DNA from: Eledone cirrhosa
Taxonomy: Eukaryota
DNA: 64,000 nt
Direction of reading: 5' to 3'
NCBI GenBank assembly: GCA_964016885.1
Contig: OZ024759.1
Location: 35,030,001-35,094,000, forward strand
Shown: piece by piece, positions 35,305 to 36,552 of the stretch
Layout: each line of letters begins with the position of its first letter
Position numbering within the stretch: position 1 is the first letter of the stretch
Position numbers and translations under genes: made by a program
Notes under the pieces: model-generated
Told to the model about the DNA's origin: nothing
The model's input: only the letters and a program-made list of their open reading frames with translations
Database searches by the model: none

Positions 35305-35446
35305 TATATACATACATACATACACACATATATATATATATATATATACATACATACATACACATATATATATAACAGGAAAGTGCAAAGTCTACAAATG
35401 ACAGAAATATAAGAGTAAGAAAAAGATAGATATTTTCCTATCTTTT

Positions 35447-35485
<39 letters not shown>

Positions 35486-35537
35486 TATATAATAAAGAAT
35501 AAAGAAGCAATTAAAAGATGGTTAAAAAAGTTCCATA

Positions 35538-35606
35538 TATTTTATTATGCGCATTTCGAATACAAAATCATCCTGGGAAAAAATTGTGTTCTCATCAGAT
35601 AAAATA
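35538..35606 (-). ncRNA. Type I hammerhead ribozyme motif, inverted twin
   Basis: Reverse complement reads TATTTTAT-CTGATGA-GAACACAA..TTGTATTC-GAAA-TGCGCA-TA-ATAAAATA. Confidence 0.78.
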
Positions 35607-35804
35607 AGGTAACATGATTTGGGGCCTAAAAACACTTGTCAACAGGAAAGTGCAAAGTCTACAAATGACAGGAATATAAGAGTAAGAAGATAGATATTTT
35701 CCTATCTTTTTATTTTTTATATATATATAAAAGAAAGAGATAGGAAAATATCTATCTTTTTCTTACTCTTGTCAATTGTTTTTAGGCCTCATATCATGTT
35801 ACCT

Positions 35805-35874
35805 TATTTTATCTGATGAGAACACAATTTTTGTCCCAGGATGATGTTGTTTTCGAAATGCGCATAATAAAATA
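35805..35874 (+). ncRNA. Type I hammerhead ribozyme motif with intact core
   Basis: Stem I 35805-35812/35867-35874; CTGATGA 35813-35819; G35820-C35854 closes stem II; GAAA 35855-35858; palindromic TGCGCA; predicted cut after A35866. Confidence 0.8.
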
Positions 35875-36552
35875 TATGGAACTCTTTTAACCATCTTTTA
35901 ATTTCTTCTTTAATATATATACTCCAGTTCTACCAACTGTTGAGTGCTACTTATCTGATATATGCATAGTTTTATTGTTCTACAATATTACTCACCTTCT
36001 ACATATATATATGTTAATCCTGGGCTACTCTATATAATATGTCTACAGTACCTAGTAGTGCTATCTTCTGTATGTTAAATATTTGTAAGTCCTGGGGTAC
36101 TCTATATAATGTCTACAGTACCTAGTGTAATTTGAAGGTGGGTTAGCTTTATAATGTTCCTCCATTGAATTCCAAGAAAGAAAAAAAACCACAACAGCAA
36201 CCATAACAACCTCAAATTTCTGGCCTTGTGCCTATCCAGAAACCATTATTGTTATTGATTTCTCTCTCTCTCTTTCAAACCTTTTCCCCACACATCACCC
36301 ACCACCACACCACCACCACCACCACCATGTTATATTACCTCATATTTAACATCTCTTCTTTACATCATAAAATAACTTCCTACTTTTTCTCTTCCTCTTC
36401 TTTACCACTTTTTCAAATTCTCTTCTTTTTCGTTTTCCTTTTTTCCCCTTTTACCAGTTTTTCTGGAACCTTCTTAAAAGATTGAGTGTTGTTGTTGTTA
36501 TTGCTGTTGTTGTTGGTGATGATGGTGCTGTTGTTGTTATTGCTGATTCTGC

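Follow-up and report, generated by a model that had tools for sequence, protein, structure and literature searches.

Several described systems resemble the locus analyzed here. In Penelope insertions an inverted pLTR lies beside a direct one, most commonly head to head, with palindromes at the junction, TATATATA readable both ways and an optional tail (Arkhipova et al. 2013, PMC3846280). The inverted copy is 5′-truncated, the tail stands at one end and insertions show a bias toward microsatellites (Craig et al. 2021, 10.1101/2021.04.23.441226). In work on Poseidon PAc of Anolis, the tail is described as the stretch between two start sites of reverse transcription, and the cleavage targets are AT-rich (Frangieh et al. 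2024, PMC11167929). Type I hammerhead ribozymes are carried by metazoan Penelope-like elements, and in Schistosoma opposite-strand pairs lie 100–700 bp apart (Cervera and de la Pena 2014, PMC4209133; see also the review PMC6765202). Opposite-strand Penelope hammerhead pairs are already published, and the kind is known. Penelope-like elements make up 6.83% of the O. vulgaris genome in 190 families (PMC13282606) and have expanded in coleoids (PMC8967140).

We analyzed a window of 64,000 nucleotides of octopus DNA, the whole stretch presented here, in which a fold-back carries two hammerhead motifs. The fold-back shares with EN+ Penelope insertions the head-to-head inverted repeat, the junction palindrome, a TATA-like sequence readable in both directions, the tail at one end, an extra partial copy, a microsatellite target and a hammerhead within the repeat, as these features are described in PMC3846280 and 10.1101/2021.04.23.441226. 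It differs in that the tail measures 30–40 bp in the insertions described there and ~82 nt here, and in that no ORF is linked to it and no target-site duplication is readable. With metazoan Penelope type I hammerheads (PMC4209133; PMC6765202) it has in common the CUGANGA/GAAA/UH core, an open stem I, a long stem II, a palindromic dimer stem III, opposite-strand pairs at comparable spacing and many dispersed copies. The minimal Penelope hammerhead of those sources has a stem I of 4–5 bp and an extra unpaired base (A9/10.1), whereas here stem I is a nearly invariant 8 bp and the extra base is absent. The motif also differs from these metazoan hammerheads in a 6-nt insert that gives an 8-bp intermolecular stem III, in an unpaired C in stem II (5 out of 5 copies) and in its AUA triplet. 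As in PAc, a stem-loop follows directly after the hammerhead, two end positions mark out the tail, and the targets are AT-rich. In PAc, which was studied in vitro, the ORF begins within the hammerhead (PMC11167929), whereas for the present locus the sequence gives only a weak suggestion of an ORF start in the tail. Animal non-LTR retrozymes (PMC7229834; 10.64898/2026.07.22.740005) are likewise short, AT-rich and non-coding, with a type I hammerhead, a high copy number and probable use of Penelope enzymes, but they are described as same-strand tandems, whereas the pair here is inverted, with one hammerhead per strand.

We found no description of an octopus hammerhead in the literature searched, although similar variants may be described in Lunse et al. 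2017 and repeat libraries may already include the family. The searched supplement of PMC4209133 names Lottia and Crassostrea, not Octopus.

Hammerhead motifs and fold-back anatomy

The original prediction had described inverted twin type I hammerheads with intact cores inside a fold-back, and we confirmed the coordinates and all core bases on both strands (Table 1); the two cores face outward. The parts claimed for each copy (an 8-bp stem I, CUGAUGA, a stem II closed by G-C, GAAA, the palindrome UGCGCA and an AUA triplet) are present on the plus-strand copy where they had been placed. In this right copy, 35805–35812 pairs with 35867–35874 to form stem I. CUGAUGA (35813–35819) is followed by a stem II region of 35 nt with a G-C closing pair (35820–35854), by GAAA (35855–35858) and by UGCGCA (35859–35864), which forms the 6-nt insert in stem III; the triplet ends in A35866 as H17. 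The stem II region of the left copy is 34 nt long, compared with 35 nt in the right. In both copies stem II consists of 3 bp, a mismatch, 4–5 bp and a weak distal part, with folding energies of −6.4 and −4.7 kcal/mol. The core bases occur in the type I order, C3–A9, G12–A15.1, U16.1 and H17, around three helices with stem I open.

Table 1. Positions of the features of the locus, of its two sister loci and of the neighboring exon in the window
Feature	Position	Strand	Remarks
XIAP-like coding exon	24789..25572	+	Product 96% identical to XIAP isoform X2 of Octopus bimaculoides; BIR protein; GT donor at 25573
Outer partial copy of the arms' 5′ segment, hammerhead-free	35374..35450	−	Oriented as the left arm
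(TA)n tract	35451..35491		Between outer copy and left-arm end; from the sequence
Left arm, no tail	35492..35720	−	Ends in (TA)n just before the tail-hairpin position
Left type I hammerhead	35538..35606	−	C3 35598, H17 35546; full set of core bases
35-nt segment	35643..35677 (approx.)	−	In left arm and outer copy, missing from right arm
(TA)6 hinge	35718..35729		Center of the head-to-head junction; TATA-like both ways, by eye
Right arm	35727..35920	+	From arm alignment
Small palindrome, 13-bp stem and 8-nt loop	35731..35764	+	5′ end of arm; repeats at 35678–35717 and 35417–35450
Right type I hammerhead	35805..35874	+	C3 35813; predicted cut after A35866
One-sided tail, ~82 nt	35921..36002	+	Bulged hairpin at start, (TA)n at end; left arm without tail
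Sister locus at 5.0 kb	4947..5230		Tailed, complete + hammerhead (C3 5045), preceded by its own 3′ half in inverted form
Sister locus at 58.7 kb	58483..58890		Head-to-head pair around a palindromic hinge

We assessed how often such motifs arise by chance using 100 block-wise dinucleotide shuffles of the window. A strict motif descriptor found three matches in the window (35813 on the plus strand, 35598 on the minus strand and 5045) and none in any shuffle. The family pattern matched five copies in the window versus none in 100 shuffles, and it had no matches in viral contigs. Rfam hammerhead models had been proposed as a check: no hammerhead family was matched in the whole window at the gathering score, and no hammerhead was among the 36 matches obtained for 35300–36000 with E-values up to 10. 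The microRNA matches in Rfam were set aside because they lie far under their gathering scores and reflect hairpin shape.

The predicted fold-back is present, with arm limits that we corrected from ~35500–35715 and ~35725–35915 to those given in Table 1. It spans 35492–35920, and its arms are 93.5% alike (173 matches, 12 mismatches). The region 35490–35925 folds at −246.2 kcal/mol with 184 pairs, as against −72.9 kcal/mol for shuffles (z = −34). The outer copy matches 35641–35716 at 74 positions with 2 mismatches and a spacing of 267; it retains the 35-nt piece absent from the right arm as well as 3 nt missing from the left one. A spliced intron was ruled out as the source of the 35-nt indel, the ends of which lack GT..AG.

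We aligned DNA reads from four of 14 listed sequencing runs to the right arm only, at an identity of at least 80%. The list named no RNA run with the sequence, which has no bearing on expression. One contig of run X1 has a piece similar to the 35-nt segment at the same place. Family reads terminate near 35899–35921 and at 36002, close to the two ends of the tail. Many family reads have A or G at 10.1 and U at 11.1, in place of the G-C pair of the locus itself (35820, 35854). We dropped the idea that the distal part of stem II has decayed from a family form, as the depth in X1 mostly matches the letters of the locus, while many X12 reads differ.

Inverted repeats are a known long-read artefact, and among the contigs listed, which were aligned to the right arm only, none spans the hinge. 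Between the arms there are nevertheless 12 substitutions and an indel of 35 nt, unlike in a chimeric copy, and run X1 contains 0.76 of the sampled words of 35492–36010. That the fold-back is an assembly artefact made from a fold-back chimeric read is therefore extremely unlikely in our judgment.

Two kinds of short repeat adjoin the locus. One, of about 60–80 nt and in three copies, flanks it at 34271–34349 and 36004–36126. The other, at 34943–35300 on the left, we take to be a tRNA-like SINE from its A/B-box features; it has copies at 56222–56573 and 59578–59832 and shorter pieces elsewhere.

Sister loci, family abundance and RNA-level selection

The locus had been taken as singular, and it is one of three head-to-head loci within 64 kb. 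The pair at 58.7 kb comprises a minus-strand copy (C3 58669) with a tail and a plus-strand copy (C3 58782) from which the 5′ strand of stem I is deleted. The arms of the three loci are 93.5%, 95.0% and 94.6% alike, and the junction is different in each: a (TA)6 hinge at the locus itself, a short palindrome at 58.7 kb and a GTAC overlap inside stem II at 5.0 kb. Other features recur in all three. The tail (80–86 nt) is confined to one arm, the arm without a tail stops in (TA)n no more than about 10 nt from the tail-hairpin position, and (TA)n is found at both ends of the insertion. Homologues of the tail lie at 5145–5230 and 58483–58562, and a solo copy lies at 39039–39120. In all four copies the tail starts with a bulged hairpin that is conserved but has a variable loop (5145, 35921, 39120 on the minus strand and 58562 on the minus strand); this hairpin is a candidate binding or priming signal.

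Run X1 yielded 2209 contigs on the right arm, with a summed depth, which is not equivalent to copy number, of 21–49 over 35726–35765 and of up to 1.8 million over 35866–35875. This contrast in depth between the hinge side and the body shows that the arm body is a very abundant repeat and that the hinge is not shared with family copies. Contigs of X1 also contain three opposite-strand joints, at positions other than the hinge of the locus. Two other organisms have sequencing runs that each contain, at low depth, a near-identical piece of the right arm: 164 nt long in one case (2 other letters, 2 gaps) and 151 nt in the other (3 other letters, 2 gaps). These pieces are suggestive of an orthologue or a close paralogue.

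The same data bear on the idea of a MITE-like fold-back element, in which the entire inverted structure would transpose together and the hammerheads would form the terminal inverted repeats. Such an element would have the long inverted arms, the TA-rich ends and the lack of coding capacity that are seen here. However, the three loci have three unrelated junctions and no shared center, and in X1 the depth is 21–49 on the hinge side versus 10^5–10^6 in the body. Cut-and-paste transposition would not be expected to leave a tail on one side only or the solo tail copy at 39.0 kb either, and we regard this explanation as very unlikely.

The window copies also allowed us to examine covariation. Six of the seven stem II pairs change on both sides over the five copies, and none of 500 shuffles reaches the score; the comparison covers three lineages only, and the structure was drawn from the same sequences. 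Elsewhere, one of four stem III pairs changes in this way, and stem I is nearly invariant and thus uninformative. Stem II covaries, and the motif has therefore been selected as RNA. In the parent element the hammerhead is a genuine RNA structure under selection, a judgment based on these three lineages. Position 4 of stem II is a C that has no pairing partner in any of the five copies. Among the variant positions listed (reads at least 80% alike), which number 38, none coincides with the 29 positions that make up the core and stem I (hypergeometric 0.004). One of the listed variants lies within the palindrome; it is frequent in X12 and almost absent in X1.

In a monomer, stem III would close a loop of 2 nt. 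Two copies folded together reach −37.7 kcal/mol (right) and −33.3 kcal/mol (left), and the double-hammerhead topology has −36.7 and −33.3 kcal/mol. Two separate monomers have −25.0 and −21.6 kcal/mol, so that the dimer topology is 11.7 kcal/mol lower. The motif is thus predicted, on these folding models, to be of the dimer type through its 8-nt palindrome. The original prediction had cited the minimal type I hammerheads of Penelope-like retroelements, with their palindromic dimer stem III, as the known parallel. Folding bears out the dimer stem III, but the term minimal does not apply here: stem I has 8 bp, stem III contains a 6-nt insert, and stem II is not preceded by an extra base.

A second, short hammerhead-like type is also present in the window, at 60072 (+), 63268 (−), 4847 (+) and 5397 (+). 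It has an extra base before stem II, as in the minimal Penelope type. Its core looks intact at 60072, 63268 and 4847, and C3 is lost at 5397. Counting the five long-stem copies as well, the 64-kb window has nine motifs. Three hammerhead motifs of the two families, all on the plus strand, are found within about 600 bp at 4847–5450. A contig of run X7 with a loose end at 35899 joins the 3′ half of the long-stem type to sequence like the start of the 60072 type, hinting that the two families nest.

Insertion architecture and origin

A Penelope-like retroelement origin had been put forward for the fold-back, and the architecture of the insertion supports it. In three out of three loci an inverted, 5′-truncated copy stands head to head with the other, with a palindrome at the junction. 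The hammerhead lies within the terminal repeat, the target is AT-rich or a microsatellite, and the insertions end in (TA)n, which leaves no target-site duplication to be read. We consider it likely that the locus is a stump-sized Penelope-like pLTR insertion, with two hammerhead ends placed head to head between (TA)n tracts, a single tail and a mirror arm probably built at insertion. We infer membership in the Penelope-like elements from this architecture.

We searched for coding remnants of the parent element. None of the 108 ORF pieces of the window (the IAP exon and 107 of the 115 pieces, those that passed a complexity filter, with exon-overlapping ones left out) matches a reverse transcriptase or GIY-YIG Pfam family, an absence that is expected for a stump. 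The tail carries a weak coding signal: 8 out of 13 differences fall at third positions (p = 0.035), and one of the six frames is open in both copies. The tail as the start of the ORF of the element is thus weakly suggested by sequence comparison. A word search with the tail peptide gave 19 candidates, none with an E-value up to 1, and an HMMER search against 1.84 billion representatives gave two matches, both to repetitive unrelated proteins. In a metagenome scan of 392 stretches, three loci had short weak matches with no hammerhead context, which we took as chance.

The arrangement could also be read as a non-LTR retrozyme, that is, a short non-coding hammerhead repeat of ~265–350 nt with no ORF of its own that makes tandem copies or circles by means of Penelope enzymes. 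The window holds no same-strand tandem with two hammerheads of the long-stem family, and the one-sided tail and the inverted arm fit a direct Penelope insertion; the coding signal of the tail, weak as it is, also speaks against a retrozyme. On the other hand, the left arm and the outer copy can be taken for one unit after which a second begins (period 267), no ORF is linked to the family and its abundance is very high. Retrozymes are moreover related to pLTRs (10.64898/2026.07.22.740005) and are present in a mussel (PMC7229834). We consider the retrozyme reading unlikely; it invokes the same enzymes as the Penelope reading, and the difference between them is mainly one of name.

A direct Penelope-like insertion could have proceeded as follows. 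The endonuclease of the element would nick a TA tract, and reverse transcription would begin at 36002, the distal end of the tail, and continue through the hammerhead to the end that carries the TATA and the palindrome. There the new strand would fold back, or a second priming would take place, and either event would produce the inverted arm, whose synthesis would end at another fixed position directly before the tail hairpin. A single template jump may have added the 77-nt outer copy, and small deletions presumably followed later. The GTAC junction at 5.0 kb would fit first-strand fold-back well, and twin priming with microhomology would give the same product. Half the divergence of the arms gives a rough age of 9 million years on the scale of PMC13282606, an estimate that ignores gene conversion.

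Taken by itself the locus matters little; the window contains three such loci, and the family is of modest interest. The family escapes Rfam, and its regular geometry, with two ends around a conserved hairpin and a new junction each time, could be used to test how Penelope inversions and tails are formed.

Predicted transcript folding within the probable host gene

The XIAP-like exon upstream of the locus, which is the one clear gene exon of the window, ends at a GT donor, and residues 259–496 of the O. bimaculoides XIAP isoform X2 were not found in the window. Because the next coding exon is absent from the window after this donor, the locus is probably intronic, as the original prediction had raised for the intron of the IAP gene. 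If the gene is collinear, the fold-back would lie within a XIAP-like intron of >38 kb (25573–64000), with the right hammerhead in sense orientation.

It had been proposed that any transcript through the locus would self-cleave in competition with a long dsRNA. The folding results point the other way. Because both copies face away from the hinge, RNA synthesis on either strand reaches the antisense arm before the ribozyme, and forcing the hammerhead to form costs 92.6 kcal/mol (+) or 95.8 kcal/mol (−) in equilibrium models that consider the RNA without proteins. When the core has just been transcribed, six of its seven bases are already paired with the antisense arm. In five prefixes from GAAA onward, on both strands, all seven core bases are paired with this arm with a probability of 1.00. 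The twin cannot be a dimer partner in cis because the copies lie on opposite strands. The visible intron offers one other copy on the same strand (58782), in which the palindrome differs and stem I has been lost. Even when a single arm is transcribed from the hinge, folding does not favor stem I in the monomer. The hammerhead is thus predicted by these models to be silent at the locus, where read-through RNA from either strand would zip into ~184 base pairs. According to PMC11167929, the Penelope hammerhead tested there cut only with its own protein, and RNA-seq was without cleavage ends.

These results weigh heavily against the idea of a host regulatory switch in the XIAP-like intron that would decide between cleavage and duplex formation. 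The antisense arm comes first and holds the core from GAAA onward at a penalty of 93–96 kcal/mol. Stem III needs a partner, of which 58782 is the only same-strand candidate, and an arm started at the hinge fails to favor stem I when alone; the behavior reported for the PAc hammerhead is likewise unfavorable to a switch. A switch could draw some support from the two intact cores, from the plus-strand copy being sense to the gene and probably intronic, and from the near-identical right-arm pieces in the runs of two other organisms. Intact cores are, however, expected in young copies (the arms are 6.5% apart), and we hold a host switch to be extremely improbable. The likeliest fate at the level of the host is that of ordinary intronic dsRNA, an editing or small-RNA substrate in the XIAP-like pre-mRNA. 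More generally, in a head-to-head layout the antisense comes first on read-through, so that such pairs would be sources of dsRNA and not cleavage switches.

A bolder reading, which we put forward tentatively and consider more doubtful than probable, extends this to the octopus genome as a whole. Octopuses would have an undescribed and extremely abundant hammerhead variant, with an invariant 8-bp stem I, a long stem II that covaries and always leaves one C unpaired, and an 8-nt dimer palindrome, carried on a short Penelope-dependent element. The bulged hairpin between the two ends would position the reverse transcriptase, and every landing would produce a mirror arm that silences the ribozyme, seeding intronic dsRNA genome-wide. 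If this is true, the family would be a major source of editing and small-RNA substrates in octopus and a large natural dataset on Penelope inversions.

Apart from the XIAP-like exon, the window contains an isolated C2H2 zinc-finger-like fragment at 19177–19347 on the minus strand (Pfam E-value 1.5e-5).
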